Assembly: GCA_964016885.1 (NCBI GenBank)
Contig: OZ024744.1
Span: 7,936,001-8,000,000 of the forward strand
Length of the DNA: 64,000 bases
Source of the DNA: Eledone cirrhosa
Lineage: Eukaryota
Direction of reading: 5' to 3'
Part shown: positions 1-27,127 of the stretch, one piece after another
Layout of the letters: each line of letters begins with the position of its first letter
Position numbering within the stretch: position 1 is the stretch's first letter
Notes under the pieces: generated by a model
The model's input: only the letters and a program-made list of their open reading frames with translations
The model's database searches: none
Told to the model about the DNA's origin: nothing
Position numbers and translations under genes: made by a program

Positions 1-3000
1 CCTCTAGTACTGCTGTAGCTGTACAGTCCTGTATACAGTGACTACATTGGTAGATGCTCTCCACTAGTACTACTGTAGCTGTACAGTCCTGTATACAGTG
101 ACTACATTGGTAGATACTCTCCTCTAGTACCACTGTGGCTGTACAGTCCTGTATATAGTGACTACATTGGTAGATGCTCTCCTCTAGTACTGCTGCAGCT
201 GTACAGTTCTGTATAGAGTGACTAAATTGGTAGATATTCTCCTCTAGTACTACTGTAGCTGTACTGTCCTGTATACAGTAACTACATTGGTAGATGTTCG
301 CCTCTTGTACTACTGCAGCTGTACAGTCCTGTATACAGTGACTGCATTGGTAGACGTTCTCCTCTGTACAACTTTCGCTATAAAATCTTGTATACAGTGC
401 CTACATTGGTAGATGTTCTCCTATAGTACTACTGTAGTTGTACAGTCCTGTATACAGTGACTACATTGGTAGATGTTCTCATCTAGTACTACTGTAGCTG
501 TACAGTCCTGTATACAGTGACTACATTGGTAGATATTCTCCTCTAGTACTACTGTAGCTGTACAGACCTGTATACAGTGACTACATTGGTAGATGTTCTC
601 CTCTAGTACTACTGTGGCTGTACAGTCCTGTATACAGTGACTACATTGGTAGATGTTCTCCTTTAGTACAACAGTGGCTGTACAGTCCTGTATACAGTGA
701 CTACATTGGTAGATGTTCTCCTCTAGTACTACTGTAGCTGTACAGTCCTGTAGACGTTCTCCTCTTGTACAACTTTCGCTTCAAAGTCTTGTATACAGTG
801 ACTACATTGGTAGATGTTCTCCTTTAGTACAACATTGGCTGTAGAGTCCTGTATACAGTGACTACATTGGTAGATGTTCTCCTCTAGTACTACTGTAGCT
901 GTACAGTCCTGTATACAGTGACTAGATTGGTAGATGTTCTCCTCTAGTACTGCTGTAGCTGTACAGTCCTGTATACAGTGACTACATTGGTAGATGTTCT
1001 CCCCTCGTACTACTGTCACTGTACAGTCCTGTATACAGTGACTACATTGGTAGATGTTCTCCTCTAGTACAATTGTAGCTGTACAGTCCTGTATACACTG
1101 ACTACATTGGTAGATGTTCTCCTCTAGTACTATCGTAGCTGTACAGTCCTGTATACAGTGACTACATTGGTAGATGCTCTCCACTAGTACTACTGTGGCT
1201 GTACAGTCATGTATACAGTGACTACATTGGTGGATGTTCTCCTCTAGTACTACTGTAGCAGTACAGTCCTGTATAGAGTGACTACATTGGTAGATGCTCT
1301 CCTCTAGTACTACTGTAGATGTAGTCCTTTATACAGTGACTACATTGGTAGATGCTCTCCTCTAGTACTGCTGCAGCTGTACAGTTCTGTATAGAGTGAC
1401 TAAATTGGTAGATGATCTCCTCTAGTACTACTGTAGCTGTACTTCCTGTATACAGTGACTACATTGGTAGATGTTTTCCTCTAGTACTACTGTAGCTGTA
1501 CAGTCCTGTATACAGTGACTACATTGGTAGATGTACTCCTCTAGTATTACTGTAGATGTACAGTCTTGTATACAGTGGTGACTACATTATTAGATGTTCT
1601 CCTCTAGTACTACTGTAGATTTACAGTCCTGTATAGAGTGACTACATTTGTAGATGTTCTCCTCTAGTACTAGTGTGGCGATACAGTCCGGTATACAGTG
1701 ACTACATTGGTAGATACTCTCCTCTAGTACTACTGTAGCTGTACAGTTCTGAATACACTGATTACATTGGTAGATGTTCTACTCTAGTACTACTGTAGCT
1801 GTACAGTGCTGTATACAGTGACTACATTGGTAGATGTTCTCCTCTAGTACTAATGTGGCTGTACAGTCCTGTATACAGTGACGACATTGGTATATGTTCT
1901 CCTCTAGTACTACTGTAGCTGTACAGTCCTGTATTCAGTGACTACATTGGTAGATGTTCTCCTCTAGTAATACTGTAGCTGTACAATCCAGTATATATAG
2001 TGACTACGTTGGTAGATGTTCTCCTCTATAGTACTGTAGCTGTACAATCCTGTATACAGTGACTACATTGGTAGATACTCTCCTCTAGTACTACAGTAGC
2101 TGTAAAGTCCTGTATAGAGTGACTGCATTGGTAGATGTTCTCCTCTAGTACAACAGTGACTGTACAGTCCTGTATACAGTGACTACATTGGTAGATGTTC
2201 ACCTCTAGTACTAGTGTAGCCATACAGTCCTGTATACAGTGACTACATTGGTAGATGTTCTCTTTTAGTATTACTGTGGCTGTACAGTCCTGTATACTGT
2301 GACTACATTGGTAGATGTTCTTCTCTAGTACTACTGTAGCTGTAAATTCCTGTATACAGTGACTACATTGGTAGATGTTCTCCTCTAGTACTACTGTAGC
2401 TGTGCAGTCCTGGATATAGTGACTACATTGGGAGATGTTCTCCTCTAGTACTACTGTAGCTGTACAGTCCTCTATACAGTGACTACATTGGTAGATACTC
2501 TCCTCTAGTACTACTGTAGCTGTACAGTTCTGAATACAGTGACTACATTGGTAGATGTTCTACTCTAGTACTACTGTAGCTGTACAGTCCTGTATAGAGT
2601 GACTACTTTGGTAGATGTTCTCCACTAGTACAACAGTGGCTGTACAGTCACGTATACAGTGACTACATTGGTAGATGTTCTCTTCTAGTACTACTGTGGC
2701 TGTACAGTCCTGTATACAGTGACTACATTGGTTGATGTTCTCCTCTAGTACAACAGTGGCTGTAGAGTCCTGTATATACAGTGACTACATCGGTAGATGT
2801 TCTCCTCTAGTACTACTGTAGCTGTAAAGTTCTGTAAACAGTGACTACATTGGTAGATGTTCTCCTCTAGTACTACTGTATCTGTAAATTCCTGTATACA
2901 GTGACTACATTGGTAGATGTTCTCCTCTAGTACTACTGTAGCTCTACAGTCCTGTATACATTTATTACATTGGTAGATGTTCTGCTCTAGTACTACTGTA

Positions 3001-6000
3001 GCTGTACAGTCCTGTATATACAGTGACTACATTGGTAGATGTTCTAATCTAGTACTACTGTAGCTGTACAGTCCTGTATACAGTGACTACATTGGTAGAT
3101 TCTCTCCTCTAGTACTACTGTAGCTGTACAGTCCTGTATACAGTGACTTCATTGGTAGATGTTCTCCTCTAGTACTACTGTAGCTGTACAGTCCTGTATA
3201 CAGTGACTACATTGGTAGATGCTCTCCTCTAGTACTACTGTAGCTGTACAGACCTGTATAAAGTGACTACATTGGTAGATGTTCTCCTCTAGTACTACTG
3301 TAGCTGTACAGTCCTGTATACAGTGACTACATTGGTAGATGCTCTCCTCTAGTACTACTGTAGCTGTACAGACCTGTATAAAGTGACTACATTGGTAGAT
3401 GTTCTCCTCTAGTACTATTGTAGCTGTACAGTCCTGTATACAGTGACTACATTGGTAGATGCTCTCCTCTAGTACTACTGTATCTGTACAGTCCTGTATA
3501 CAGTGCCTACATTGGTAGATGCTCTGCTCTAGTACTACTGTAGTTATAAAGTCCTGTATACAGTGACTACGTTGGTAGATGCTCTCCTTTAGTACTACTG
3601 TAGCTGTACATTCCTGTATATAGTGACTACATTGGTAATATGCTCTCCTTTAGTACTACTGTGACTGTACAGTCTTATATACAGTGACTACATTGGTAGA
3701 TGTTCTCCTCTAGTACTACTGTAGCTGTACAGTCCTGTATATACAGTGACTACATTGGTAGATGCTCTCCTCTAGTACTACTGTAGCTGTATAGTCCTGT
3801 ATACAGTGACTACATTGGTAGATATTCTCCTCTAGTACTACTGTAGCTGTACACTCCTGTATACAGTGACTACATTGGTAGATGTTCTCCTCTAGTACTA
3901 CTGTAGCTGTACAGTCCTGTATACAGTGACTACATTGGTAGATACTCTCCTCTAGTACTACTGTAGCTGTACAGTTCTGAATACAGTGTCTACATTGGTA
4001 GATGTTCTCCTCTAGTACTACTGTAGCTGTACAGTCCTGTATACAGTGACTACATTGGTAGATGCTCTCCTCTAGTACTACTGTAGCTGTACAGTCTTGT
4101 ATACAGTGACTACATTGGTAGATGCTCTCCTTTAGTACAACAGTGGCTGTACAGTCCTGTATACAGTGACTACATTGGTAGATGTTCTACAGTAGTACTA
4201 CTGTAGCTGTACAGTCCTATATACAGTGACTACATTGGTAGATGTTCTCCTCTAGTATACTGTAGCTGTACAGTCCTGTATACAGTGACTGAATTGGTAG
4301 ATGTTCTCCTCTAGTACTACTGTGGCTGTACAGTCCTGTATACAATGACTACATTGATAGATGTTCTCCTCTCGTATTAATGTAGCTGTACAGTCCTGTA
4401 GACGTTCTCCTCTTGTACAACTTTCGGTTCAAAGTCTTGTATACAGTGACTACATTGGTAGATGCTCTCCATTAGTACAAAAGTGGCTGTACAGTCCTGT
4501 ATACAGTGACTACATTGGTAGATGTTCTCCTTTAGTACAACAGTGGCTGTACAGTCCTGTATACAGTGACTAGATTGGTAGATGTTCTCCTCTAGTACTG
4601 CTGTAGCTGTACAGTCCCGAATACAGTGACTACATTGGTAGATGTTCTCCCCTCGTACTACTGTCCCTGTACAGTCCTGTATACAGTGAGTACATTGGTA
4701 GATGTTCTCCTCTGGTACGATTGTAGCTGTACAGTCCTGTATACACTGACTACATTGGTAGATGTTCTCCTCTAGTACTACTGTGGCTGTACAGTCATGT
4801 ATACAGTGACTACATTGGTAGATGATCTCCTCTAGTACTACTGTAGCAGTACAGTCCTGTATACAGTGACTACATTGGTAGAGGTTCTCCTCTAGTACTA
4901 CTGTAGCTGTACAGTCCAGTATATATAGTGACTACGTTGGTAGATGTTCTCCTCTAGTACTACTGTAGCTGTACAGTCCTGTATACAGTGACTACATTGG
5001 TAGATACTCTCCTCTAGTACTACAGTAGGTGTAAAGTTCTGTATAGAGTGACTGCATTGGTAGATGTTCTCCTCTAGTACAACACTGGCTGTACAGTACT
5101 GTATACAGTGACTACATTGGTAGATGTTCACCTCTAGTACTAGTGTAGCTGTACAGTCCTGTATACAGTGACTACATTGGTAGATGTTCTCTTTTAGTAC
5201 TACTGTTGCTGTACAGTCCTGTATACTGTGACTACATTGGTAGATGTTCTCCTCTAGTACTACTGTAGCTGTAAATTTCTGTATACAGTGACTACATTGG
5301 TAGATGTTCTCCTCTAGTACTACTATAGCTGTACAGTCCTGTATACAGTGACTACATTGGTAGATGTTCTCCTCTAGTACTATCGTAGCTGTACTGTCCT
5401 GTATACAGTGACTATATTGGTAGATGTTCTCCTCTAGTCCTACTGTATCTCTACAGTCCTGTATACAGTGACTACATTGGTAGATGCTCTCCACTAGTAC
5501 TACTGTGGCTGTACAGTCATGTATACAGTGACTACATTGGTGGATGTTCTCCTCTAGTACTACTGTAGCAGTACAGTCCTGTATAGAGTGAATACATTGG
5601 TAGATGCTCTCCTCTAGTACTACTGTAGCTGTACAGTCCTGTATTCAGTGACTACATTGGTAGATGCTCTCCTCTAGTACTACTGTAGCTGTACAGTCCT
5701 GTATACAGTGACTACATTGGTAGATGTTCTCCTCTAGTACTACTGTAGATTTACAGTCCTGTATAGAGTTACTACATTGGTAGATGCTCTCCTCTAGTAC
5801 TACTGTAGCTGTACAGTCCTGTATAGAGTGAGTACATTGGTAGATGTTCTCCTCTAGTACTACTGTAGCTATACAGTCCTGTATACAGTGACTATACTGG
5901 TAGATGTACTCCTCTAGTACTACTGTAGCTGTACATTCCTGTATAAAGTGACTACATTGGTAGATGCTCTCCTTTAGTACTACTGTGACTGTACAGTCTT

Positions 6001-9000
6001 ATATACAGTGACTACATTGGTAGATGTTCTCCTCTAGTACTACTGTAGCTGTACAGTCCTGTATATACAGTGACTACATTGGTAGATGCTCTCCTCTAGT
6101 ACTACTGTAGCTGTATAGTCCTGTATACAGTGACTACATTGGTAGATGTTCTCCTCTAGTACTACTGTCGCTGTACAGTCTTGTATACAGTGACTACATT
6201 GGTAGATGTTCTCCTCTAGTACTACTGTGGCTGTACAATCCTGTATACAGTTTCTACATTGGTAGATGTTCTCCTCTAGTACTACTGTAGCTGTACAGTC
6301 CAGTATATATAGTGACTACATTGGTAGATGTTCTCCGCTAGTACTACTGTAGTTGTACAGTCCTGTATACAGTGACTACATTGGTAGATACTCTCTTCTA
6401 GTACTACAGTAGCTGTACAGTCCTGTATACGGTGACTACATTGGTAGATGTTCTCCTTTAGTACAACAGTGGCTGTACAGTCCTGTATACAGTGACTACA
6501 TTGGTAGATGTTCTCCTCTAGTACTACTGTAGCTGTACAGTCCTGTATACAGTGACTACATTGGTAGATGTTCTCCTCTAGTACTACTGTGGCTGTACAG
6601 TCCTGTATACAGTGACTACATTGGTAGATGTTCTCCTCTAGTACTACTGTAGCTGTACAGTCCTGTATACAGTGACTACATTGGTAGATGTTCTCCTCTA
6701 GTACTACTGTAGCTTTACAGTCCTGTATACAGTGACTACATTGGTAGATGTTCTCCTCTAGTACTGCTGTAGCTGTACAGTCCTGTTTACAGTGACTACA
6801 TTGGTAGATGTTCTCCTCTAGTACTACTGTGGCTGTACAATCCTGTATACAGTTTCTACATTGGTAGATGTTCTCCTCTAGTACTACTGTAGCTGTACAG
6901 TCCAGTATATATAGTGACTACATTGGTAGATGTTCTCCGCTAGTACTACTGTAGCTGTACAGTCTTGTATACAGTGACTACATTGGTAGATACTCTCCTC
7001 TAGTACAACAGTAGCTGTACAGTCCTGTATAGAGTGACTGCATTGGTAGATGTTCTCCTCTAGTACAACAGTGGCTGTACAGTCCTGTATAGAGTGACTA
7101 CATTGGTAGATGTTCTCATCTAGTACTAGTGTAGCTGTACAGTCCTGTATACAGTGACTACATTGGTAGATGTTCTCCTCTAGTACTACTGTAGCTGTAC
7201 AGACCTGTATACAGTGACTACATTGGTAGATTTTCTCCTCTAGTACAACAGTGGCTGTACAGTCATGTATACAGTGACTACATTGGTAGATGTTCTCCTC
7301 TAGTACTACTGTAGCTGTACAGTCCTGTATACAGTGACTTCATTGGTAGATGTTCTCCTCTACTACTACTGTAGCTGTACAGTCCTGTATACAGTGACTA
7401 CTTTGGTAGATGTTCTCCTCTAGTACTACTGTAGCTGTACAGTCCTGTATACAGTGACTTCATTGGTAGATGTTCTCCTCTAGTACTACTGTAGCTGTAC
7501 AGTCCTGTATACAGTGACTACATTGGTAGATGTTCTCCTCTAGTACTACTGTAGCTGTACAGTCCTGTATACAGTGACTACATTGGTAGATGCTCTCCTC
7601 TAGTACTACTGTAGCTGTACAGTCCTGTATACAGTGACTACATTGGTAGATGTACTCCTCTAGAACTACTGTATCTCTACAGTCCTGTATACAGTGACTA
7701 CATTGGTAGATGCTCTCCTCTAGTACTACTGTAGCTGTACACTCCTGTATATAGTGACTACATTGGTAGATACTCTCCTCTAGTACTACTGTAGCTGTAC
7801 AGTCCTGTATACAGTGACTAGATTTGTAGATGTTCTCTTCTAGTACTACCGTAGCTGTACAGTCCTGTATAGAGTGACTACATTGTTAGATGTTCTCCTC
7901 TAGTACTACTGTAGCTGTACAGTCCTGTATACAGTGACTACATTGGTAGATGTTCTCCTCTAATACTACTGTAGCTGTACAGTCCTGTATACAGGGACTA
8001 CATTGGTAGATGCTCTCCTCTGGTACTACTGTAGCTGTTCATTCATGTATACAGTGACTATATTGCTAGATGTTCCCCTCTAGTAGTGCTGTGACTGAAC
8101 AGTTCGGTATACAGTGACTATATTGGTAGATGTTCCCCTCTAGTACTACTGTAGCTGTACAGTCCTGTAGACGTTCTCCTCTTGTACAACTTTCGCTTCA
8201 AAATCTTGTATACAGTGACTACATTGGTAGATGCTCTCCTTTAGTACAACAGTGGCTGTACAGTCCTGTATACGGTGACTACATTGGTAGATGTTCTCCT
8301 TTAGTACAACAGTGGCTATACAGTCCTGTATACTGTGACTACATTGGTAGATGTTCTCCTCTAGTACTACTGTAGCTGTACAGTCCTGTATACAGTGACT
8401 ACATTGGTAGATGTTCTCCTCTAGTACTACTGTGGCTGTACAGTCCTCTATACAGTGACTACATTGGTAGATGTTTTCCTCTAGTACTACTGTAGCTGTA
8501 CAGTCCTGTATACAGTGACTACATTGGTAGATGTTCTCCTCTAGTACTACTGTAGCTTTACAGTCCTGTATACAGTGACTACATTGGTAGATGTTCTCCT
8601 CTAGTACTGCTGTAGCTGTACAGTCCTGTATACAGTGACTACATTGGTAGATGTTCTCCCCTAGTACTAATGTGGCTGTACAGTCCTGTATATAGTGACT
8701 ACATTGGTAGATGTTCTCCTCTAGTATTACTGTAGCTGTACAGTCCTGTATAGAGTGACTACATTGGTAGATGTTCTCCTCTAATACTACTGTAGCTGTA
8801 CAGTCCTGTATACAGTGACTACATTGGTAGATGTTCTCCTCTAGTACTGCTGTAGCTGTGCAGTCCTGTATACAGTGACTAGATTGGTAGATGTTCTCCT
8901 CTAGTACTGCTGTAGCTGTACAGTCCTGTATACAGTGACTACATTGGTAGATGTACTCCTCTGTACTACTGTAGCTGTACAGTCCTGTATACAGTGACTA

Positions 9001-12000
9001 CATTGGTAGATGTTCTCCTCTAGTACTACTGTACCATTACAGTCCTGTATACAGTGACTACATTGGTAGATGTTCTCCTCTAGTACTACTGTAGCTCTAC
9101 AGTCATGTATACAGTGACTACATTGGTAGATGTTCTCCTATAGTACTACTGTAGCTGTACAGTCCTGTATACAGTGACTACATTAGTAGATGTTCTCCTC
9201 TAGAACTATTGTGGCTGTACAGTCCTGTATATAGTGACTACATTGGTAGATGCTCTCCTCTAGTACTACTGTAGCTGTACAGTCCTGTATACAGTGACTA
9301 CATTGGTAGATGTTCTCCTCTAGTACTACTGTAGCTGTACAGTCTTGTATACAGTGACTACATTGGTAGATGCTCTCCTCTAGTACTACTGTAGCTGTAC
9401 AGTCCTGTATACAGTGACAAAATTGGTAGATGTTCTCCTATAGTACTACTGTGGCTACATTGGTACATGTTCTCCTCTAGTACAACTGAAGCTGTACAGT
9501 CCTGTATATACAGTGACTACATTGGTAGATATTCTCCTCTAGTACTACTGTAGCTGTACAGTCCTGTATACTGTGACTACATTGGTAGATATTCTCCTCT
9601 AGAACTACTGTAGCTGTACAGTCCTGTATACAGTGACTACATTGGTAGGTATTCTCCTCTAGAACTACTGTAGCTGTACAGTCCTGTATACAGTGACTAC
9701 ATTGGTAGATGTTCTCCTCTAGTACTATTGTGGCTGTACAGTCCTGTATACAGTGACTACATTGGTAGATGTTCTCCTCTAGAACTATTGTGGCTGTACA
9801 CTCTTGTATACAGTGACTAGATTGGTAGATGTTCTTATCTAGTACTGCTCTGACTGAACAGTTCGGTATACAGTGACTAGATTTGTAGATGTTCTCTTCT
9901 AGTACTACCGTAGCTGTACAGTCCTGTGTACAGTGACTACATTGGTAGATGCTCTCTTCTAGTACTACTGTGGCTGCACAGTCCGGTATACATTGACTAC
10001 ATTGGTAGATGTTCTCCTCTAGTACTACTGCAGCTCTACAGTCCTGTATACAGTGACTACATTGGTAGATGTTCTCCTCTAGTACTACTGTAGCTATACA
10101 GTGACTACATTGGTAGATGTTCTCCTCTAGTACCACTGTAGCTGTACAATCCTGTATATAGTGACTACAATGGTAGATGTTCTCCTCTAGTACTACTGCA
10201 GCTCTACAGTCCTGTATACAGTGACTACATTGGTAGATATTCTCCTCTAGTACTACTGTAGCTGTACAGTCCTGTATACAGTGACTACATTGGTAGATGT
10301 TCTCCTCTAGTACTACTGTAGCTGTACAGTCCTGTATACAGTGACTACATTGGTAGATGATCTCCTCTAGTACTACTGTAGCTATACAGTCCTGTATACA
10401 GTGACTACATTGGTAGATTCTCTCCTCTAGTACTACTGTAGCTGTACAGTCCTGTATACAGTGACTACATTGGTAGATGTTCTCCTCTAGTATTACTGTA
10501 GCCGTACAGTCCTGTATACAGTGACTACATTGGTAGATATTCTCCTCTAGTACTACTGTAGCTGTACAGTCCTGTATACAGTGACTACATTGGTAGATGT
10601 TCTCCTCTAGTATTACTGTAGCTGTACAGTCCTGTATACAGTGACTACATTGGTAGATATTCTCCTCTAGTACTACTGTAGCTGTACAGTCCTGTATAAA
10701 GTGACTACATTGGTAGATGCTCTCCTCTAGTACTGCTGCAGCTGTACAGTTCTGTATAGAGTGACTAAATTGGTAGATGTTCTCCTCTTGTACTACTGTA
10801 GCTGTACAGTCCTGTATACAGTGACTACATTGGTAGAAGTTCTCCTCTGTACAACTTTCGCTATAAAATCTTGTATACAGAGACTACATTGGTAGATGTT
10901 CTCCTATAGTACTACTGTGGTTGTACAGTTCTGTATACAGTGACTACATTGGTAGATGTTCTCCTCTAGTACTACTGTAGCTGTCCTGTCATGTATACAG
11001 TGACTATATTGCTAGATGTTCCTCTCTAGTACTGCTGTGACTGAACAGTTCGGTATACGGTGACTATATTGGTAGATGTTCCCCTCTAGTACTACTGTAG
11101 CTGTACAGTCCTGTAGACGTTCTCCTCTTGTACAACTTTCGCTTCAAAGTCTTGTATAGAGTGACTACATTGGTAGATGCTCTCCTTTAGTACAACAGTG
11201 GCTGTACAGTCCTGTATACAGTGACTACATTGGTAGATGTTCTCCTTTAGTACAACAGTGGCTGTACAGTCCTGTATACAGTGACTACATTGGTAGATGT
11301 TCTCCTCTAGTATTACTGTAGCTGTACAGTCCTGTATACAGTGACTACATTGGTATATGTTCTCCCCTAGTACTAATGTGGCTGTACAGTCCTGTATATA
11401 GTGACTACATTGGTAGATGTTCTCCTCTAGTATTACTGTAGCTGTACAGTCCTGTATAGAGTGACTACATTGGTAGATGTTCTCCTCTAATACTACTGTA
11501 GCTGTACAGTCCTGTATACAGTGACTACATTGGTAGATGTTCTCCTCTAGTACTACTGTAGCTGTACAGTCCTGTATACAGTGACTACATTGGTAGATGT
11601 ACTCCTCTGTACTACTGTAGCTGTACAGTCCTGTATACAGTGACTACATTGGTAGATGTTCTCCTTTAGTACAACAGTGGCTTTACAGTCCTGTATACAG
11701 TGACTACATTGGTAGATGTTCTACTCTAGTACTACTGTGGCTGTACAGTCTTGTATACAGTGACTACATTGGTAGATGTTCTCCTCTAGTACTACTGTAG
11801 CTGTACAGTCCTGTATACAGTGACTACAGTGGTAGATGTTCTCGTCTAGTACTACTGTAGTTGTACACTCCTGTATACAGTGACTACATTGGTAGATGTT
11901 CTCGTCTAGTATACTGTGGCTGTACAGTCCTGTATACAGTGACAACATTGGTAGATGTTCTCCTCTAGTATACTGTGGCTGTACAGTCCTGTATACAGTG

Positions 12001-15000
12001 ACAACATTTGTAGATGTTCTCCTCTAGTATACTGTGGCTGTACAGTCCTGTATACAGTGACTACATTGGTAGATGTTCTCGTCTAGTACTACTGTAGCTA
12101 TCCAGTCCTGTATACAGTGACAACATTGGTAGATGCTCTCCTCTAGTACTACTGTGACTGTACAGTCTTATATACAGTGACTACAGTGGTAGATGTTCTC
12201 CTCTAGTACTAATATGGCTGTACAGTCCTGTATATAGTGACTACATTGGTAGATGTTCTCCTCTAGTACTACTGTAGCTCTACAGTCATGTATACAGTGA
12301 CTACATTGGTAGATGTTCTCCTATAGTACTACTGTATCTGTACAGTCCTGTATACAGTGACTACATTAGTAGATGTTCTCCTCTAGAACTATTGTGGCTG
12401 TACAGTCCTGTATGCAGTGACTAGATTGGTAGATGTTCTAATCTAGTACTACTGTAGCTGTACAGTCCTGTATACAGTGACTACATTGGTAGATGTTCTC
12501 CCCTAGTACTACTGTAGCTGTACAGTCTTGTATACAGTGACTACATTGGTAGATGCTCTCCTCTAGTACTACTGTAGCTGTACAGTTTTGTATACAGTGA
12601 CCACATTGGTAGATGTTCTCCTATACTACTACTGTGGCTACATTGGTACATGTTCTCCTCTAGTACAACTGAAGCTGTACAGTCCTGTATATACAGTGAC
12701 TACATTGGTAGATATTCTCCTCTAGTACTACTGTAGCTGTACAGTCCTGTATACTGTGACTACATTGGTAGATATTCTCCTCTAGTACTACTGTAGCTGT
12801 ATAGTCCTGTATACAGTGACTACATTGGTAGATATTCTCCTCTAGAACTACTGTAGCTGTACAGTCCTGTATACAGTGACTACATTGGTAGATATTCTCC
12901 TCTAGAACTACTGTAGCTGTACAGTCCTGTATACAGTGACTACATTGGTAGATGTTCTCCTCTAGTACTATTGTGGCTGTACAGTCCTGTATACATTGAC
13001 TACATTGGTAAATGTTCTCCTCTAGTACTACTGTGGCTGTACAGTCTTATATACAGTGACTAAATTGGTAGATGTTCTCCTCTAGAACTATTGAGGCTGT
13101 ACAGTCCTGTATACAGTGACTAGATTGGTAGATGTTCTCATCTAGTACTGCTGTGACTGAACAGTTCGGTATACAGTGACTAGATTTGTAGATGTTCTCT
13201 TCTAGTACTGCCGTAGCTGTACAGTCCTGTATACAGTTTACTACATTGGTAGATGTTCTCCTCTAGTACTACTGTGGCTGTACAGTCTTATATACAGTGA
13301 CTACATTGGTAGATTCTCTCCTCTAGTACTACTGTAGATGTACACTCCTGTATATAGTGACTATATTGGTAGATGCTCTCCTTTAGTACTACTGTAGCTG
13401 TACAGTCCTGTATATACAGTGACTACATTGGTAGATGCTCTCCTCTAGTACTACTGTAGCTGCATGTTCCTGTATAAAGTGACTACATTGGTAGTTGGTC
13501 TCCTCTAGTACTACTGTAGCTGTACAGTCTTGTATACAGTGACTACATTGGTAGATACTCTCCTCTAGTACTACTGTAACTGTACAGTCCTGTATGCAGA
13601 GACTACATTGGTAGATGTTCTCCTATAGTACTATTGTAGCTGTACAGTCCTGTATACAGTGACTACATTGGTAGATTCTCTCCTCTAGTACTACTGTAGT
13701 TGTACAATCCTGTTATATAGTGACTACATTGGTAGATGTTCTCCTCTGTACTACTGTAGCTGTACAGTCCTGTATACAGTGACTACATTTGTAGATGTCC
13801 TCCTCTAGTACTACTGTAGCTGTATAGTCCTGTATACAGTGACTACATTTGTAGATGTTCTCCGCTAGTACTACTGTAAGTATACAGTCCTGTATACAGT
13901 GACTACATTGGTAGATGTTCTCCTCTAGTACTACTGTATCTGTAAATTCCTGTATACAGTGACTACATTGGTAGATGTTCTCCTCTAGTACTACTGTAGC
14001 TCTACAGTCCTGTATACATTTATTACATTGGTAGATGTTCTGCTCTAGTACTACTGTAGCTGTACAGTCCTGTATACAGTGACTACATTGGTAGATGTTC
14101 TGCTTTAGTACTATTGTCGCTGTACAGAGTTGTATACAGTGACTACATTGGTAGATGCTCTCCTCTAGTACTACTGTAGCTGTACAGTCCTGTATACAGT
14201 GACTACATTGGTAGATACTCTCCTCTAGTACCACTGTGGCTGTACAGTCCTGTATATAGTGACTACATTGGTAGATGCTCTCTTCTAGTACTGCTGCAGC
14301 TGTACAGTTCTGTATAGAGTGACTAAATTGGTAGATGTTCTCCTCTTGTACTACTGTAGCTGTACAGTCCTGTATACAGTGACTACATTGGTAGAAGTTC
14401 TCCTCTGTACAACTTTCGCTATAAAATCTTGTATACAGAGACTACATTGGTAGATGTTCTCCTATAGTACTACTGTGGTTGTACAGTTCTGTATACAGTG
14501 ACTACATTGGTAGATGTTCTCCTCTAGTACTACTGTGGTTGTACAGTTTTATATACAGTGGCTACATTGGTAGCTGTTCTCCTCTGGTACTACTGTAGCT
14601 GTCCTGTCATGTATACAGTGACTATATTGGTAGATGTTCCCCTCTAGTACTACTGTAGCTGTACAGTCCTGTAGACGTTCTCCTCTTGTACAACTTTCGC
14701 GTCAAAGTCTTGTATAGAGTGACTACATTGGTAGATGATCTCCTTTAGTACAACAGTGGCTGTACAGTCCTGTATACAGTGACTACATTGGTAGATGTTC
14801 TCCTCTAGTATTACTGTAGCTGTACAGTCCTGTATACAGTGACTACATTGGTAGATGCTCTCCTTTAGTACAACAGTGGCTGTACAGTCCTGTATACAGT
14901 GACTACATTGGTAGATGTTCTCCTCTAGTATTACTGTAGCTGTACAGTCCTGTATACAGTGACTACATTGGTAGATGTTCTCCCCTAGTACTAATGTGGC

Positions 15001-18000
15001 TGTACAGTCCTGTATATAGTGACTACGTTGGTAGATGTTCTCCTCTAGTATTACTGTAGCTGTACAGTCCTGTATAGAGTGACTACATTGGTAGATGTTC
15101 TCCTCTAATACTACTGTAGCTGTACAGTCCTGTATACAGTGACTACATTGGTAGATGTTCTCCTCTAGTACTGCTGTAGCTGTGCAGTCCTGTATACAGT
15201 GACTAGATTGGTAGATGTTCTCCTCTAGTACTGCTGTAGCTGTACAGTCCTGCATATAGTGACTACATTGGTAGATGTTCTCCTCTAGTACTACTGCAGC
15301 TGTACAGTCCTGTATACAGTGACTACATTGGTAGATATTCTCCTCTAGTACTACTGTAGCTGTACAGTCCTGTATACTGTGACTACATTGGTAGATATTC
15401 TCCTCTAGAACTACTGTAGCTGTACAGTCCTGTATACAGTGACTACATTGGTAGATGTTCTCCTCTAGTACTACTGTAGCTGTACAGTCCTGTATACAGT
15501 GACTACATTGGTAGATGTTCTCCTCTAGTACTATTGTGGCTGTACAGTCCTGTATACATTGACTAAATTGGTAGATGTTCTCCTCTAGAACTACTGTAGC
15601 TGTACAGTCCTGTATACAGTGACTACATTGGTAGATGTTCTCCTCTAGTACTACTGTGGCTGTACAGTCTTATATACAGTGACTACATTGGTAGATTCTC
15701 TCCTCTAGTACTACTGTAGATGTACACTCCTGTATATAGTGACTACATTGGTAGTTGGTCTCCTCTAGTACTACTGTAGCTGTACAGTCTTGTTTACAGT
15801 GACTACATTGGTAGATACTCTCCTCTAGTACTACTGTAGCTGTACAGTCCTGTATACAGTGACTACATTGGTAGATGTTCTGCTCTAGTACTACTGTAGC
15901 TGTATAGTACTATATACAGTGAGTACATTGGTAGATGTACTCCTCTAGTACTACTGTAGCTGTACATTCCTGTATATAGTGACTACATTGGTAGATGCTC
16001 TCCTTTAGTACTACTGTGACTGTACAGTCTTATATACAGTGACTACATTGGTAGATGTTCTCCTCTAGTACTACTGTAGCTGTACAGTCCTGTATATACA
16101 GTGACTACATTGGTAGATGCTCTCCTCTAGTACTACTGTAGCTGTATAGTCCTGTATACAGTGACTACATTGGTAGATGTTCTCCTCTAGTACTACTGTC
16201 GCTGTACAGTCTTGTATACAGTGACTACATTGGTAGATGTTCTCCTCTAGTACTACTGTGGCTGTACAATCCTGTATACAGTTTCTACATTGGTAGATGT
16301 TCTCCTCTAGTACTACTGTAGCTGTACAGTCCTGTATACAGTGACTACATTGGTAGATACTCTCCTCTAGTACTACAGTAGCTGTACAGTCCTGTATAGA
16401 GTGACTGCATTGGTAGATGTTCTCCTCTAGTACAACAGTGGCTGTACAGTCCTGTATACAGTGACTACATTGGTAGATGTTCTCATCTAGTACAAGTGTA
16501 GCTGTACAGTCCTGTATACAGTGACTACATAGGTAGATGTTCTCCTCTAGTACTACTGTAGCTGTACAGACCTGTATACAGTGACTACATTGGTAGATTT
16601 TCTCCTCTAGTACTACTGTAGCTGTACAGACCTGTATAGAGTGACTACATTGGTAGATGTTCTCCTCTAGTACTACTGTAGATTTACTGTCCTGTATAGA
16701 GTGACTACATTGGTAGATGTTCTCCTCTAGTACTACTGTAGCTGTACAGTCCTGTATACAGTGACTACATTGGTAGATGGTCTCCGCTAGTACTACTGTA
16801 GCTGTACAGTCCTGCATACAGTGACTACATTGATAGATACTCTCCTCTAGTACTACTGTAGCTGTACAGTCCTGTATAGAGTGACTACATTGGTAGATGT
16901 TGTCCTCTAGTACTACTGTATCTGTACAGTCCTGTATACAGTGACTACATTAGTAGATGTTCTCCTCTAGAACTATTGTGGCTGTACACTCCTGTATACA
17001 GTGACTACATTGGTAGATGTTCTCCTCTAGTACTACTGTAGCTGTACAGTCTTGTATACAGTGACTACATTGGTAGATGCTCTCCTCTAGTACTACTGTA
17101 GCTGTACAGTCCTGTATACAGTGACCACATTGGTAGATGTTCTCCTATAGTACTACTGTGGCTACATTGGTACATGTTCTCCTCTAGTACAACTGAAGCT
17201 GTACAGTCCTGTATATACAGTGACTACATTGGTAGATATTCTCCTCTAGTACTACTGTAGCTGTACAGTCCTGTATATAGTGACTACATTGGTAGATGTT
17301 CTCCTCTAGTACTACTGTAGCTGTACAGTCCTGTATACAGTGACTACATTGGTAGATGTTCTCCTCTAGTACTACTGAAGCTGTACAGTCCTGTATACAG
17401 TGACTACATTGGTAGATATTCTCCTCTAGTACTACTGTAGCTGTACAGTCCTGTATATAGTGACTACATTGGTAGATGTTCTCCTCTAGTACTACTGTAG
17501 CTGTACAGTCCTGTATACAGTGACTACATTGGTAGATATTCTCCTCTAGAACTACTGTAGCTGTACAGTCCTGTATACAGTGACTACATTGGTAGATGTT
17601 CTCCTCTAGTACTACTGTGGCTACATTGGTACATGTTCTCCTCTAGTACAACTGAAGCTGTACAGTCCTGTATATACAGTGACTACATTGGTAGATATTC
17701 TCCTCTAGTACTACTGTAGCTGTACAGTCCTGTATATAGTGACTACATTGGTAGATGTTCTCCTCTAGTACTACTGTAGCTGTACAGTCCTGTATACAGT
17801 GACCACATTGGTAGATGTTCTCCTATAGTACTACTGTGGCTACATTGGTACATGTTCTCCTCTAGTACAACTGAAGCTGTACAGTCCTGTATATACAGTG
17901 ACTACATTGGTAGATATTCTCCTCTAGTACTACTGTAGCTGTACAGTCCTGTATATAGTGACTACATTGGTAGATGTTCTCCTCTAGTACTACTGTAGCT

Positions 18001-19250
18001 GTACAGTCCTGTATACAGTGACTACATTGGTAGATATTCTCCTCTAGTACTACTGTAGCTGTACAGTCCTGTATATAGTGACTACATTGGTAGATGTTCT
18101 CCTCTAGTACTACTGTAGCTGTACAGTCCTGTATACAGTGACTACATTGGTAGATATTCTCCTCTAGAACTACTGTAGCTGTACAGTCCTGTATACAGTG
18201 ACTACATTGGTAGATGTTCTCCTCTAGTACTACTGTAGCTGTACAGTCCTGTATACAGTGACTACATTGGTAGATATTCTCCTCTAGTACTACTGTAGCT
18301 GTACAGTCCTGTATATAGTGACTACATTGGTAGATGTTTCCCTCTAGTACTACTGTAGCAGTACAGTCCTGTATACAGTGACTACATTGGTAGATATTCT
18401 CCTCTAGAACTACTGTAGCTGTACAGTCCTGTATACAGTGACTACATTGGTAGATGTTCTCCTCTAGTACTACTGTAGCTGTACAGTCCTGTATACAGTG
18501 ACTACATTGGTAGATGTTCTCCTCTAGTACTACTGTAGCTGTACAGTCCTGTCTACAGTGACTACATTGGTAGATGTTCTCCTCTAGTACTATTGTGGCT
18601 GTACAGTCCTGTATACATTGACTACATTGGTAAATGTTCTCCTCTAGTACTACTGTGGCTGTACAGTCTTATATACAGTGACTAAATTGGTAGATGTTCT
18701 CCTCTAGAACTATTGGGGCTGTACAGTCCTGTATACAGTGACTAGATTGGTAGATGTTCTCATCTAGTACTGCTGTGACTGAACAGTCCTGTATACAGTG
18801 ACTAGATTTGTAGATGTTCTCTTCTAGTACTACTGTAGCTGTACAGTCCTGTATACAGTTTACTACATTGGTAGATGTTCTCCTCTAGTACTATTGTGGC
18901 TGTACAGTCTTATATACAGTGACTACATTGGTAGATTCTCTCCTCTAGTACTACTGTAGCTGTACAGTCCTGTATATAGTGACTACATTGGTAGATGTTC
19001 TCCTCTAGTACTACTGTAGCTGTACAGTCTTATATACAGTGACTACAGTGGTACATGCTCTCCTCTAGTACTACTGTATCTGTACAATCCTGTATACAGT
19101 GACTACATTGGTAGATGTTCTCCTCTAGTACTACTGTAGCTGTACAGTCCTGTATTTAGTGACTATATGGTAGATGTTCTCCTCTAGTACTATTGTGGCT
19201 GTACAATCCTGTATACAGACAGTGACTACATTGGTAAATGCTCTCCTCTG
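1..19250. repeat. 60-bp tandem satellite, about 320 monomers, continues beyond the window start
   Basis: Consensus CCTCTAGTACTACTGTAGCTGTACAGTCCTGTATACAGTGACTACATTGGTAGATGTTCT recurs in register with the 60-nt lines, with scattered substitutions and small indels. The array ends at ~19250 in LINE sequence. Confidence 0.99.
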
Positions 19251-20440
19251 GTGCTCTGTATTGTTCTTTTTTTTAGCACACTTTTCCTCGGAGCCAAGTT
19301 TCAATTCATCCTCCACTCTCACAGTACTTGTCTCCACCGTCGGCAATCATTAGCAACCTCCTCCCATCTCCGGGTGTCCAGGTCTACTGACTTCATATCC
19401 TTCCTGCAGACATCTTTGAAGCGAAAATGAGTCGTACTCGTGCTCTTCTGCCGGTGGCCAGTTTCCCAAAAGTAGGTCTTTGGGGATCCTTCTGTTCGGC
19501 ATACGATCTGCGTGACCAAGCCAGCGCAGACGACGCTGTTTGAGCAGGGTGCAAATGCTGGGTATCTTGACGCAGTTGATGACCTCAGTGTCCATGACGC
19601 GGTTATTTCACTTGATATCCAAAATGCGTCTCAGGCAATGAAGGTAGAAGACATTGAGATGCCACTCCTGTCTGGAGTTGAGGTTGCGCTGCCGTAAAGT
19701 TTTGAGCTGAGGACACATGCCTTGTAGACAGCAATCTTGGTGTTTGTGGTTAGTTTTGTTCCCTAGACTCTTCGCCTGGCAAATGTGAAGGTTGCTTGTT
19801 CATCTCTCCTGAAGATCTTGTGGTCCAGGGAGAGGTTGTCAGTGATGGTGAAGCCAAGGTAGGAGAATTCGTGGACCACCTCCAACTCATAGTTTTGATG
19901 GTGTTGGTGGGGTTGTGCTTGAAACTTTGGCCTAGTACATTGGTATTCTTCAGACTAATGGTCAGGTTGAATTCCGAGCAGGCCCTCAAGATTTTGTTCC
20001 TGAGGTGCTGCATTTCCTCCCCAGAGTGCCCTGCCAGTGTGGCGTCATCCACAAACAGCAGTTCTTTGATGATTTAATGGTGACCTTGTATTTCACTTTC
20101 AGCCTTGACAAACTAAACGGCTTGCTGTCTGCCCTGGTGTTGAGGTAGACACACCAAGTTGACTCTCCAAATGCATGTTTTAGCATGACTACGAAAATGA
20201 TGCCAAACAGGGTGGGGGATAGCACGCACCCTGCTTCACTCCGCTTCATATGTCAAATGTCTCCGAAGGAGAGCCATTCTTATCTGCTCGAAACGACTGG
20301 ACTATCCTAAGATGTGTTGGAGGACAACCAATTCTGGCAAGGATCTTAAGCAGACCGTCTCTACTAAAGAGATCGAATGCCTTCGTCAGGTCGATGAAGG
20401 TGATGTACAGTGTTTGCGTTTGCTCTCGGCACTTCTTGTA
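19230..20440 (-). mobile_element. 5'-truncated, degenerate RTE-clade non-LTR retrotransposon (RT domain to C-terminus), with frameshifts and stops
   Basis: Minus-strand translation gives KCREQ..LYITFIDLTKAFD, GCVLSPTLFGIIF, LLFVDDATL, LTISLKNTNVLGQ, EFSYLG, TKIAVYKACVLS, LKQRRLRWLGHADRMPNRRIPKDLL and RFKDVCRKDMK..WEEVAND..WRQ. These are the RT and C-terminal motifs of RTE/BovB-type elements, in the expected order. Confidence 0.93.
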
Positions 20441-20803: not shown

Positions 20804-21001
20804 TCGCCATTGCAGCATTAGCAATCTCCTGTGTCAGTATCAAGTGACAGTGATGTGAAGGTAATGAGGTCGCCATTGCAGCATTAGCAATCTCCTGTGT
20901 CAGTGTCAAGTGACAGTGATGTGAAGGTAATGAGGTCGCCATTGCAGCATTAGCAATCTCCTGTGTCAGTGTCAAGTGACAGTGATGTGAAGGTAATGAG
21001 G
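20804..21001. repeat. 66-bp tandem repeat, 3 copies
   Basis: CGCCATTGCAGCATTAGCAATCTCCTGTGTCAGT(A/G)TCAAGTGACAGTGATGTGAAGGTAATGAGG(T) starts at 20805, 20871 and 20937. The copies are nearly identical. Confidence 0.95.
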
Positions 21002-21207
21002 CACGATTTACTTTAAAGACCAGGCTGGCGAATATTTTAAAAATGAACACAAAGAAATGATGGATAAAGCACTCGACCAGGATATCCGGGTAGAATGCAA
21101 AGACAAACATGGCAAATAATTAATAAAATCGAACTATAATAAACAGAGTAAATAGTTCAGATTATAGTCTGGATGCGGGTTATCCCTGGGAGTTTAAATA
21201 TATAATT

Positions 21208-21396
21208 GTTTCTACCTTGGGCACAAGGCCAGCAATTACACCAGTGCATGACTGGTACTTTATTTTATCGACCCCATAAGGATGAAAGGAAAAGTTAACC
21301 TCGACGGGATTTGAATTCACATCATAAAGGGCCGTAACTCTACGCTGCAAAGTATGGGGTCCGACCTTCTACCGATACTGCCAATCTACCGCCCTA
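21208..21396 (-). mobile_element. tRNA-derived SINE (cephalopod-type), internally deleted
   Basis: The minus strand starts TAGGGCGGTAGATTGGCAGTATCGGTAG (A-box-like TGGCAGTATCGG) and has a B-box-like GAATTCAAATCCC at ~21306-21318. The plus strand carries GGCACAAGGCCAGCAATT..ACTGGTACTTTATTTTATCGACCCC..AAGGATGAAAGG, which I recognise from memory as an abundant Octopus SINE body (not database-checked). Confidence 0.82.
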
Positions 21397-21500
21397 AAAA
21401 ATCTTCGATCGTTTTCCCACTCAATCGATATTTTAATTAGACAGTGCACACAACTACATTAAACAGTGAGAAAAGCGATTTCGTGTGGGTAGAGAATTAG
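21396..21500 (+). repeat. Diverged direct repeat, copy 2
   Basis: Similar to 20475-20609. Begins immediately next to the SINE 5' end. Confidence 0.75.
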
Positions 21501-24186: not shown

Positions 24187-24769
24187 TATAAAGAAAAAGG
24201 GATGAAATCGAAAATGCAACTGAAGTCTTATTTTTTTTTTAAAATATATATATTTATTTGGTTCCTTTACCGGTTTCGCAGTTCTTCTGCTTTTCAAAAG
24301 GTGAGTTGAGATGGAGGGTCTGTGGTTTTTCTCACATCTGGTTGGTCTCTAAATGTTACTTGTTTTATATGGAAAAAGTGGCTCGAAAACCAGGTTTTTC
24401 GAGAAGTAATTTGATTGGTTTGTCAATAATTATAATAAATTTCGCGCCAGTTCGCGTTACAATAGTTCTTCAAATAAGAGAGGGGGGTGTCACAGGTTGT
24501 TTTTTCATATATGAGTGTTTGAATTTCTTTTTACTTGAAAAAATGAGGCTCACGAAGGCTTTTTTTTGGTTGGTTATAAATGAAATTTGGCTGTCACGTG
24601 AACAAGTTTTCATTACATTTTTGCGCCCTTATTTGGAAAACTATTCTGTAGTCTTTATAGTGAATGTTATGACAATGGAGAGATAGTGGTCAAGGGAAAA
24701 GGGATTGGAAGAAATGTTCTGGTTCAGTGAATATGGCCAGCTGTCAGAGTTCAGGTGTCAGAGTTCAGA
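24187..24769. repeat. Inverted repeat B (partner 26543-27127), pseudo-LTR-like
   Basis: Near-identical reverse complement. The track ORFs 24258..24686(+) and 26626..27057(-) differ by one inserted residue. Confidence 0.97.
24264..24301 (-). ncRNA. Minimal hammerhead ribozyme motif (U3-A8 core variant) in pseudo-LTR B
   Basis: Minus strand reads CCTT-TTGAAAA-GCAG aagaa CTGC-GAAA-CCGG-TA-AAGG. Confidence 0.7.
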
Positions 24770-24809
24770 TTTTCTATTGAGACTGAAGATATGTGTTTAT
24801 TTATGTGCT

Positions 24810-24857
<48 letters not shown>

Positions 24858-25329
24858 TATTGGAAGATGATTCTATTAGTAGAGATGGGGGAGGGAGTTG
24901 TGTGTGTGTGTATATGGGTGTTATGTGTGTGTGTGCGAGTATGTTAGATAGAGAGAATATATATTTTGTGTGTGTGTATATATATATGTGTGTAGGAAAG
25001 TGGTTCTATTAGTAGAAATGGGGAGGGTGTTGTAGGTGTGGGGGTTGTTATGTGTGTGTATGGGTGTTATGTGTGTGGGAGTATGGTTAGCATGTTAAGA
25101 TGAAGAGAATATATATATATATATATATTGTGTGTGTGTGTGTGTGTGTGTAGGAAAATGATTCCTTTAGTAGGAATATTTTTGAATGAACATATTTTCC
25201 TGACTTTTTCGTGTTTGCTGTTGTATTGCCAGTGCAAACGTATGTTTAAGGTTTATTTAGTTCGGGTTTTTATTTTCTAAAGTAGAAGGTGTTATGTGTG
25301 TGTGTGTGTATGTCATATTGTGGTGTTGA

Positions 25330-26537
25330 CATAATGTATATTAAACCTTATTTAATGTTGGTCTATATTTTTGAATAAACATACATATTTTCCTTATTTA
25401 TTCGCATTTGTTCTGTTGTATTGTTAGCGCAAATGTAAAATGGGAAGACTTGGAATTTGGGTGTCTTATTACTTGCGCAAATGTCTAGATATGCACTTAG
25501 TGGTATCTGTCTCGTGGTTGGATCTCGTAATTGTTGGCGATGAACTGTCATTCTGTTTCTGAGTGTGAGTTTAGTTTGTCCTATATAATCTTCATTGCAT
25601 CCTTTACATTTAATGGCATAAATTAGATTTTTTGATGAGCAAGTGAAGTGATTTTTTACAGTAAAATTTTGTCCTGATTTAAATGTATACGTGTTGCCTT
25701 CAATGAGGTGAGTGCAGATTCCACAATTAGAGCGACCACATTTTTTGATACTTGGTTGTGGGTTTGTGGTAGGTAATTTGGCATTGGTGTGTAATGTTTT
25801 CAGTGATTTTGGTTGTCTTTTGCTTTTGATTATTTTGTGTGTTTCAAGGGCTTTTTTCATTCTTGGGTTTTGTTTTAGTAGTGGGATGTTATTGTGAATA
25901 GTGTTGTAAGCTTCCGCATTTCTTGGGTTGTGTGTTGAGATATATGATAGAATATTGGACGTACCTTGAATTTGTTTCTGTTTCCGTAATTCATCAATGC
26001 CTATTGCTTTAGCCCTTTCTATTCCATTATTTATTAGTAATAGTGGGTACTCTCTCTCAAATAGAATTTCCTTTAATTCTTGAAGTCTTTTATTTCGCGT
26101 TTCATAATTGGAGACAATTGTGCAAATACTTCTTGCTAGGTTAAAAGGAATGTTCGCCTTCGTGTGCTTTGGATGGTTGGAGGTGAATAGCAGATATTGT
26201 TTGGAATCTGTTGGTTTGTAGTGTATGTCAGTTTCGATATTTGTGTCTTTTTTTGTGATTAAGATGTCCAGAAATGGGAGTTGATCTTGGCTGTATTCCA
26301 TTGTGAATTGGATGTGGTTATTGATGCCGTTTATTAAGTTTTTGAAATCCTTCAGTTGGTCGAGTGTGTGGGACCAAAGAATGAGGCAATCATCCAAGTA
26401 GCGTTTCCAATTCTCTGATAAATATTTGTGGAAGTTCAATCCGTATTTTGATTTGGACTGTTCATATATCTGGACTTCTAAGTATGCCATGACTAAGTTG
26501 GCATAAGTTGGAGCGGCTTTTGTGCCCATCGCAGTCC
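25330..26537 (-). pseudogene. Penelope-like reverse transcriptase (C-terminal half), Cys-rich linker and GIY-YIG endonuclease
   Basis: TAMGTKAAPTYANLVMAYLE, WKRYLDDCLILW, LPFLDI, YKPTDSKQYL, CGRSNCGICTH, NLIYAIKCKGCNEDYIGQTK..RMTVH. The frame is open for ~390 codons, but the N-terminal RT motifs are missing and the extreme C-terminus appears frameshifted. The Cys linker suggests the Neptune group. Confidence 0.93.
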
Positions 26538-26542
26538 TGAAC

Positions 26543-27127
26543 TCTGAACTCTGACACCTGAACTCTGACAGCTGGCCATATTCACTGAACCAGAACATTT
26601 CTTCCAATCCCTTTTCCCTTGACCACTATCTCTCCATTGTCATAACATTCACTATAAAGACTACAGAATAGTTTTCCAAATAAGGGCGCAAAAATGTAAT
26701 GAAAACTTGTTCACGTGACAGCCAAATTTCATTTATAACTAACCAAAAAAAAGCCTTCGTGAGCCTCATTTTTTCAAGTAAAAAGAAATTCAAACACTCA
26801 TATATGAAAAAACAACCTGTGACAACCCCCCCCTCTCTTATTTGAAGAACTATTGTAACGCGAACTGGCGCGAAATTTATTATAATTATTGACAAACCAA
26901 TCAAATTACTTCTTGAAAAACCTGGTTTTCGAGCCACTTTTTCCATATAAAACAAGTAACATTTAGAGACCAACCAGATGTGAGAAAAACCACAGACCCT
27001 CCATCTCAACTCACCTTTTGAAAAGCAGAAGAACTGCGAAACCGGTAAAGGAACCAAATAAATATATATATTTTAAAAAAAAATAAGACTTCAGTTGCAT
27101 TTTCGATTTCATCCCTTTTTCTTTATA
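26543..27127. repeat. Inverted repeat B' (5'-inverted copy of the element's own 3' end)
   Basis: Reverse complement of 24187-24769, joined to the truncated RT through a CTGAACT stutter at 26537-26550. Confidence 0.97.
27014..27051 (+). ncRNA. Minimal hammerhead ribozyme motif (U3-A8 core variant) in B'
   Basis: CCTT(27014-17) TTGAAAA(18-24) GCAG-aagaa-CTGC(25-37) GAAA(38-41) CCGG TA AAGG(48-51). Predicted cleavage after GUA at 27047. Confidence 0.7.

Follow-up and report, generated by a model that had tools for sequence, protein, structure and literature searches.

A 60-bp satellite array embedded in a decayed RTE-type LINE copy and its probable origin in stages across several LINE copies

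The window, that is, the entire 64,000-nucleotide stretch of DNA analyzed here (G000:C28:7936001-8000000; array coordinates outside it are given on C28), opens with a non-coding satellite, denoted array A, that is embedded in a decayed RTE-type LINE copy. The presence of a LINE-derived satellite in place is real and well supported, and the derivation of its 60-bp monomer from the RTE LINE segment encoding the C-terminal CxxC..GLYSH motif is confirmed at the level of sequence comparison. The initial annotation had proposed that the motif collapsed and was amplified in a single episode at this locus, with the birthplace of the satellite preserved. That proposal is not supported in this form, given that undeleted tandems with the same junction are present at 18 other RTE copies, and the 60-bp satellite itself resides in two others on the contig. 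From evidence that comes in its entirety from one assembly, we consider it probable, with moderate confidence, that the satellite arose in stages across several LINE copies, not in one local event.

The LINE stem in the window (19256..20436, minus strand) is 5'-truncated at 20436 and decayed. It consists of the C-terminal half of the reverse transcriptase (RT), stops short of the Cys/His motif, diverges by ~13% from the family majority, and matches RVT_1 weakly (E 0.0086). As initially annotated, the minus-strand LINE enters the array without a break: one frame, at 19263-19186, reads KKEQYRAPEESIYQCSHCLYTGLYSH unbroken across the join. The unit is entered at an ACAG microhomology (19246..19260, minus strand) with a 1-bp deletion that is common only to array A and to arrays B and C described below; it was detected in none of 37 single-copy rows and in 3 of the 18 other rows, namely, those of the three arrays. 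The first monomer (19193..19255, minus strand) is 63 bp long and combines a 19-bp deletion with a private 4-bp duplication, which had been noticed near 19215 and is located at 19215-19222; the sole reason that this monomer is in frame is that -19+4 = -15. The initial annotation spans 1..19330; TRF reports a 60-bp array over 1-19260, and 19260-19330 is LINE sequence. Short-read contigs of 570-571 bp cover 19176-19745, and thus the join, with 0 differences, which excludes an assembly error at this point; these contigs possibly derive from the assembled sample itself and do not count as a second individual.

Array A (minus strand) occupies 1..19192 of the window and extends to G000:C28:7927743, for a length of 27.5 kb, of which 8.2 kb lies left of the window. 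It is a long head-to-tail array with 454 unit anchors (~455 units), 318 of these within the window; 398 spacings are exactly 60 bp, and ~12% of the units deviate from this length. At the far end, the last unit retains the 19 bp and is followed by ~20 bases of LINE 3' sequence, which carry the CTACAG change of the satellite, and then by a break. Because LINE sequence is present at both ends and the last unit is undeleted, array A sits inside one LINE copy. Short-read contigs cross the far junction as well, again with 0 differences, and two reduced-representation runs from other samples yielded 0 reads over it. It had been expected that the LINE stop, 3' UTR, and tail would be found left of the window. 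The LINE does go on past the last unit, for the ~20 bases just described, but the stop, 3' UTR, and tail were not found in the 100 kb left of array A or around arrays B and C.

To identify the monomer, 19180-19700 was used as the query against one 3.0-Gb assembly; there were 57 matches, and 29 other loci were read. Among these first 29 copies, those that reach the 3' end possess the full motif, including the spacer that is absent from the monomer, and the 3'-complete copies have an YKCSRCIQDCHSRVGLYSHSRHC-like translated end followed by a stop, a short UTR, and an (AAT)n tail, of which the window copy has none. Thus, the 3'-complete copies contain the motif sequence, the lack of which in intact members would, according to the initial annotation, have meant that the LINE abuts an unrelated satellite. 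The monomer aligns base by base with intact LINE ends and corresponds to the 79-bp segment between the near-repeats CACAGTAG and CACAGCAG, minus 19 bp; in the family sequence, this loss lies between GGACTG and GGCCTG. Accordingly, the monomer is the product of two events, a 79-bp duplication and then a 19-bp deletion, not one. The collapse of the motif by a microhomology deletion, as envisaged earlier, agrees with the flanked 19-bp deletion but leaves out the separate duplication that preceded it. Likewise, two GGACTGT-like words were predicted to flank the deleted part; the family has GGACTG and GGCCTG, and a repeated GGACTG is confined to relic units in B and C.

At the protein level, a 301-aa frame of the family copy L193 produced 970 matches at E<=1e-30, the best of which is 70% identical, ~1,044-1,045 aa long, and contains PF03372, PF14529, and PF00078. 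The single-ORF architecture with an APE endonuclease and an RT is therefore found on relatives, the window copy being truncated. From this architecture and from what is known of LINE clades, we take the family to belong to the RTE clade. A C-terminal motif of the type CxxC..CHSR(I/V)GLxSH..C is present in 82 of 120 homologous proteins among the matches listed, and the family copies translate to a CxxC..GLxSH C-terminal motif as these proteins do, so the motif that had been given for RTE/BovB-type ORFs is the right one. The later monomers were said to encode YQCSHCIQDC and GLYS(H/Y)S, and YQCSHCIQDC and GLYSYS are indeed seen, in different frames. Protein searches with short decayed LINE fragments gave no match.

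One frame of the 60-bp unit is open, and the summed repeats score against a C2H2 Pfam model, as those of a tandem Cys-rich coding array would. However, the pattern of changes is neutral. The observed and expected numbers of synonymous changes are 258 and 216 in A, 472 and 457 in B, and 19 and 35 in C, and those of stop changes are 41 and 45, 82 and 102, and 8 and 6, respectively; overall, synonymous, non-synonymous, and stop changes in the three arrays match the neutral expectation, with no coding selection detected. The candidate of a tandem zinc-finger gene under purifying selection was rejected on these grounds, units of other lengths being common as well (~12% in A). Predicted hairpin stability, considered as a possible cause of the stronger expansion of the 60-bp form, has z-scores of ~0 to -4 in both the 60-bp and the 79-bp forms. 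We assign a negligible probability to a coding array, to a LINE abutting an unrelated satellite, and to an assembly error taken together: the first conflicts with the neutral changes and the off-length units, the second with the base-by-base alignment to intact LINE ends, and the third with the crossing of both junctions by short-read contigs, possibly from the assembled sample.

Apparent precursors of the satellite are dispersed in the genome. The 18 other RTE copies are spread over 12 contigs; their tandem units, 2-96 per copy, measure 73-80 bp, are mostly undeleted, and have a common junction, and a LINE tail is clear in the printed stretch at 14 of these loci. The pool comprised 19 loci in 20 stretches retrieved with a derived-state query and three loci found earlier. 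Three changes adjacent to the junction are present in 12, 14, and 14 of 15 independent tandem loci compared to 1, 2, and 1 of 18 single copies, with arrays A, B, and C counted as one locus, each of two C22 groups likewise, and a 65-bp array that has a different junction excluded. Most of the tandem loci came from a query with the derived bases, which biases these counts at two of the three diagnostic sites. An allele-neutral junction pattern recovered the derived base at 10 of the 11 loci listed (first 100 of 125 matches). Private changes average ~9.5% in array units (15 loci) and 10.0% in single copies, which places the common origin at about the age of the insertions. Tandem copies are a minority, with 2 of 10 exact tail-anchored matches (one uninformative) and 0 of the 18 copies with a readable unit among 31 RT-anchored loci.

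No subfamily signal is seen in the stems (tandem-bearing copies share 0.69 derived changes per 100 columns and single ones 0.72), so that the case for a source element comes from the unit alone; the LINE tails of the tandem copies show none either. First units frequently have the ancestral entry, and last units are ancestral in some arrays. In a duplicated element, the frame would continue out of register past the motif; one of the derived changes creates a stop about ten codons further on, which would keep the protein of such an element near its native length, an observation that is no more than suggestive. We read these data as one old duplication, most simply placed in the source element, with ancient ectopic conversion as a possible alternative.

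This LINE end has also been duplicated in tandem with different junctions (L003, L023, L025, and L030): a 65-bp unit is repeated 15 times, two loci have a 66-bp unit that lies further upstream, and a segment of ~46 bp is duplicated once. Two RTE copies on C22, L045 and L047 (9.64 and 9.96 Mb), lie 317 kb apart and contain 2 units in one and 20 in the other; their last several hundred bases are near-identical and they differ further 5', a pattern that looks like a conversion tract. The near-identical pairs of single-unit copies L015/L021 and L008/L024 are probably recent segmental duplicates.

The 60-bp form is shared by three arrays on one contig. Array B (C28:16.84-16.91 Mb, minus strand, 1,024 unit anchors) and array C (C28:14.67 Mb, minus strand, 53 unit anchors) are located at RTE 3' ends and begin, in register, at the same point of the RTE 3' end as array A. 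An exact 29-base pattern of the 60-bp junction has 267 occurrences in the genome, all within A, B, and C (113, 142, and 12, respectively). The medoid units of the three arrays are 98-100% alike, and their LINE stems are 68-75% alike, single copies averaging 80%. B and C keep undeleted units, in two of which, unlike in A, the GGACTG repeat is perfect; B exceeds A in size and diversity, and 79- and 60-bp units are mixed at its start. The idea that B or C was retrotransposed from A after A had aged was considered and rejected, as the changes of A are absent from their stems.

The three 60-bp arrays all run on the minus strand, and none of them has the LINE tail, which is present in most 79-bp arrays. 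Within array B, a 5.4-kb insertion (G000:C28:16865413-16870797, L088-L089) with near-identical terminal direct repeats of ~250 bp resembles a young LTR retrotransposon.

Away from the junctions, the flanks of the three arrays share no more than short matches, and a comparison of A, B, and C revealed no colinear blocks; hence, these arrays are not recent block duplicates. They might instead be very old segmental duplicates of one insertion, with the flanks since overwritten and the arrays kept alike by exchange. Such an ancestry would explain the 1-bp entry deletion found in these arrays and in no other copy, their common contig and strand and missing tails, and the 5 derived changes shared by the stems of B and C. 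We nevertheless regard it as very improbable: A shares 1 derived stem change with B and 1 with C, which does not exceed the number in unrelated pairs, flank homology was not found over up to 12 kb (2.7 kb on the 5' side of C), and exchange between the loci would be needed in any case.

The evidence of such exchange comes from the monomers. The distances between monomers of A and B (10.5%) and of A and C (9.6%) fall within the range observed inside the arrays (9.3-11.5%), and a trio of arrays on C22 with unrelated flanks behaves similarly (5.3-5.9% between arrays, 4.3-5.7% within); for arrays on different contigs, the distance is 10-18%. On one contig, therefore, between-array distances equal within-array ones, which is the satellite-type homogenization among arrays. 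Furthermore, 82 of 281 recurrent three-site variants are shared in the A-B comparison (shuffled mean 22.5), 50 of 899 in the reverse direction (31), 18 of 41 between C and A (3.9), and 2 of 41 between C and B (2.5), under a shuffle null that leaves recurrent context-dependent mutation out of account. This pattern makes A the apparent hub of variant sharing. The equal distances, together with the variants shared by A with B and by C with A, suggest that exchange likely took place after the monomers had diversified, however the three loci began.

The staged origin that we favor would have started with a single 79-bp duplication between the two near-repeats, the junction of which is observed and the timing of which can be suggested. 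The carrier was probably a source element, whose retrotransposition would then have provided a minority of copies with a two-unit seed. In a second stage, the seeded copies would have grown in place, presumably through slippage or unequal exchange, to the observed series of 2-96 units. Third, one unit on C28 would have lost 19 bp between GGACTG-like words; the deletion is directly visible. Fourth, the 60-bp form may have spread in register among the three RTE-borne arrays on C28 by non-allelic recombination, with growth to 53, ~455, and ~1,024 units. Two observations run against this staged origin: the missing subfamily signal in the stems, and the ancestral bases in the last units of some arrays, for which a simple seeded source needs later exchange.

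Both would be accommodated if the 79-bp duplication occurred a single time, in a copy that was already in place, and then reached other RTE copies, including ones on different chromosomes, through ectopic gene conversion or the integration of DNA circles, so that no source element with the duplication is needed. Stems and tails without a subfamily signal are then expected, ancestral entry in first units and ancestral bases in some last units are what insertion into the recipient's own unit would give, and LINE copies that share a contig have evidently exchanged sequence. However, units differ by 10-18% between contigs, and their private changes are about as many as in single copies, so an ectopic spread would need to match the insertions in age and to start from a donor with three or four changes already in place. 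We deem this route unlikely.

As to where the 60-bp form of the staged origin first appeared, the anatomy of array A fits a birthplace and a recipient equally. The CTACAG change in the terminal LINE piece of A and its position as the hub of shared variants favor an origin in A; the undeleted units with perfect GGACTG repeats kept by B and C and the larger size, greater diversity, and mixed start of B speak against it. Array A is the likeliest single birthplace, at slightly under an even chance. The same terminal change, hub position, and anatomy would fit a strictly local history in which duplication, deletion, and amplification all took place at A, with B and C as offshoots and the other 79-bp arrays arising independently at a duplication-prone microhomology; the 65-, 66-, and ~46-bp duplications show that this region is indeed prone to duplication. 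Independent events, however, would not have three point changes in common at as many as 12-14 of 15 loci, and the relic undeleted units with perfect microhomology in B and C are also at odds with such a history, which we consider improbable. Returning to the staged origin, we tentatively propose, as a plausible but less than even prospect, that old LINE copies serve as in-register landing pads: a LINE with a duplicated zinc-finger segment would seed satellite starts throughout the genome, and the 60-bp variant would move by homologous recombination between separate insertions of one chromosome, over distances of up to 9 Mb, outgrowing the 79-bp form about tenfold.

The remainder of the window contains additional repeats. 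A second satellite, with a 45-bp unit, runs from 31818 to 64000 and on to at least G000:C28:8130361 (at least 160 kb), adjoining a decayed Penelope-like RT frame at ~31820; a search with it returned only the array itself among the matches listed. A Penelope-like element at 24243-27072 has an RT frame of 420 aa (25363-26625) that matches GIY-YIG and is bounded by near-identical inverted segments of ~440 bp (24243-24686 and 26626-27072). A 66-bp unit is repeated three times at 20804-21001 with 99% identity, and at ~21200-21400 the read depth is extremely high over a short element that is probably a SINE-like repeat.

In architecture, the LINE family is likened by description to RTE-2_OV, an octopus LINE of the RTE clade with a single ORF of ~1,050-1,100 aa containing an endonuclease, RT, and C2H2-type finger (PMC9115989); unlike RTE-2_OV as described there, the present family is old, ~10-13% from the majority, with no intact copy seen. 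Satellites containing LINE ORF sequence have been reported, including chicken HinfI (part of CR1 ORF2) and Phodopus PROsat (L1 ORF2), and the cetacean common satellite resembles the L1 3' end (PMC9659126; for other LINE-ORF-related satellites, see PMC12628747). Our monomer similarly resembles LINE coding or 3' sequence; for those satellites, the accessible text reports similarity alone (PMC9659126), whereas here the parent copy, both junctions, and intermediates are in place. The available part of PMC13282606 does not contain the word 'satellite', and in the literature searched, with subscription papers and supplements outside its scope, we found no description of this satellite or of any satellite derived from an RTE zinc finger.

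Spread along one chromosome into existing repeats has a parallel in the Rsp-like satellite, which enters 1.688 clusters along the Drosophila X, with microhomology repair and DNA circles proposed as the mechanism (PMC7403614). In that case, two different satellites are joined at microhomology, whereas in the present case a LINE end serves as donor and a homologous one as recipient, and entry is in register. In Lathyrus sativus, short arrays within dispersed Ogre LTR retrotransposons occasionally expand into satellites (PMC7004042), and here, too, short in-element tandem arrays occasionally become long. Unlike in Ogre, the source is a LINE coding region, the seed is present in a minority of copies, and a 19-bp deletion step is tied to the longest arrays. 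With respect to a seed borne by the mobile element itself, as in Ogre, the shared junction changes favor it, the stem signal is absent, and 0 of 18 readable RT-anchored copies are tandem.

A close parallel is provided by the SINE-derived satellites (sSat) of squamate reptiles, as far as they are described in the available text of PMC10702118. There, an internal segment of a non-LTR element is repeated in tandem, the same unit is found at many loci in few to ~1,000 copies, similarity is higher among units than among parent elements (89% vs 64% in one snake), and truncated variants can dominate long arrays. As in sSat, the terminal units here run into the parent element, and the unit occupies many loci. 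The present satellite works like an sSat but is none, its parent being a LINE ORF with a zinc-finger motif, not a SINE; it occupies tens of loci, not hundreds to thousands, and its homogenization is confined to arrays that lie on the same contig. Thus, the origin of this satellite is of a known kind, represented by sSat and Ogre, and what is added is a preserved series of intermediates together with evidence of in-register exchange between separate LINE copies. The birth and spread of satellites are usually inferred from similarity, when the parent is already gone. Here, one genome preserves a series that leads from the ancestral state through the two-unit seed and mid-sized arrays to the deletion step and arrays of 27-62 kb, each stage anchored in a LINE copy of measurable age. 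The roughly twenty loci can serve as natural replicates in studies of the factors that decide expansion and of the range over which loci exchange sequence.
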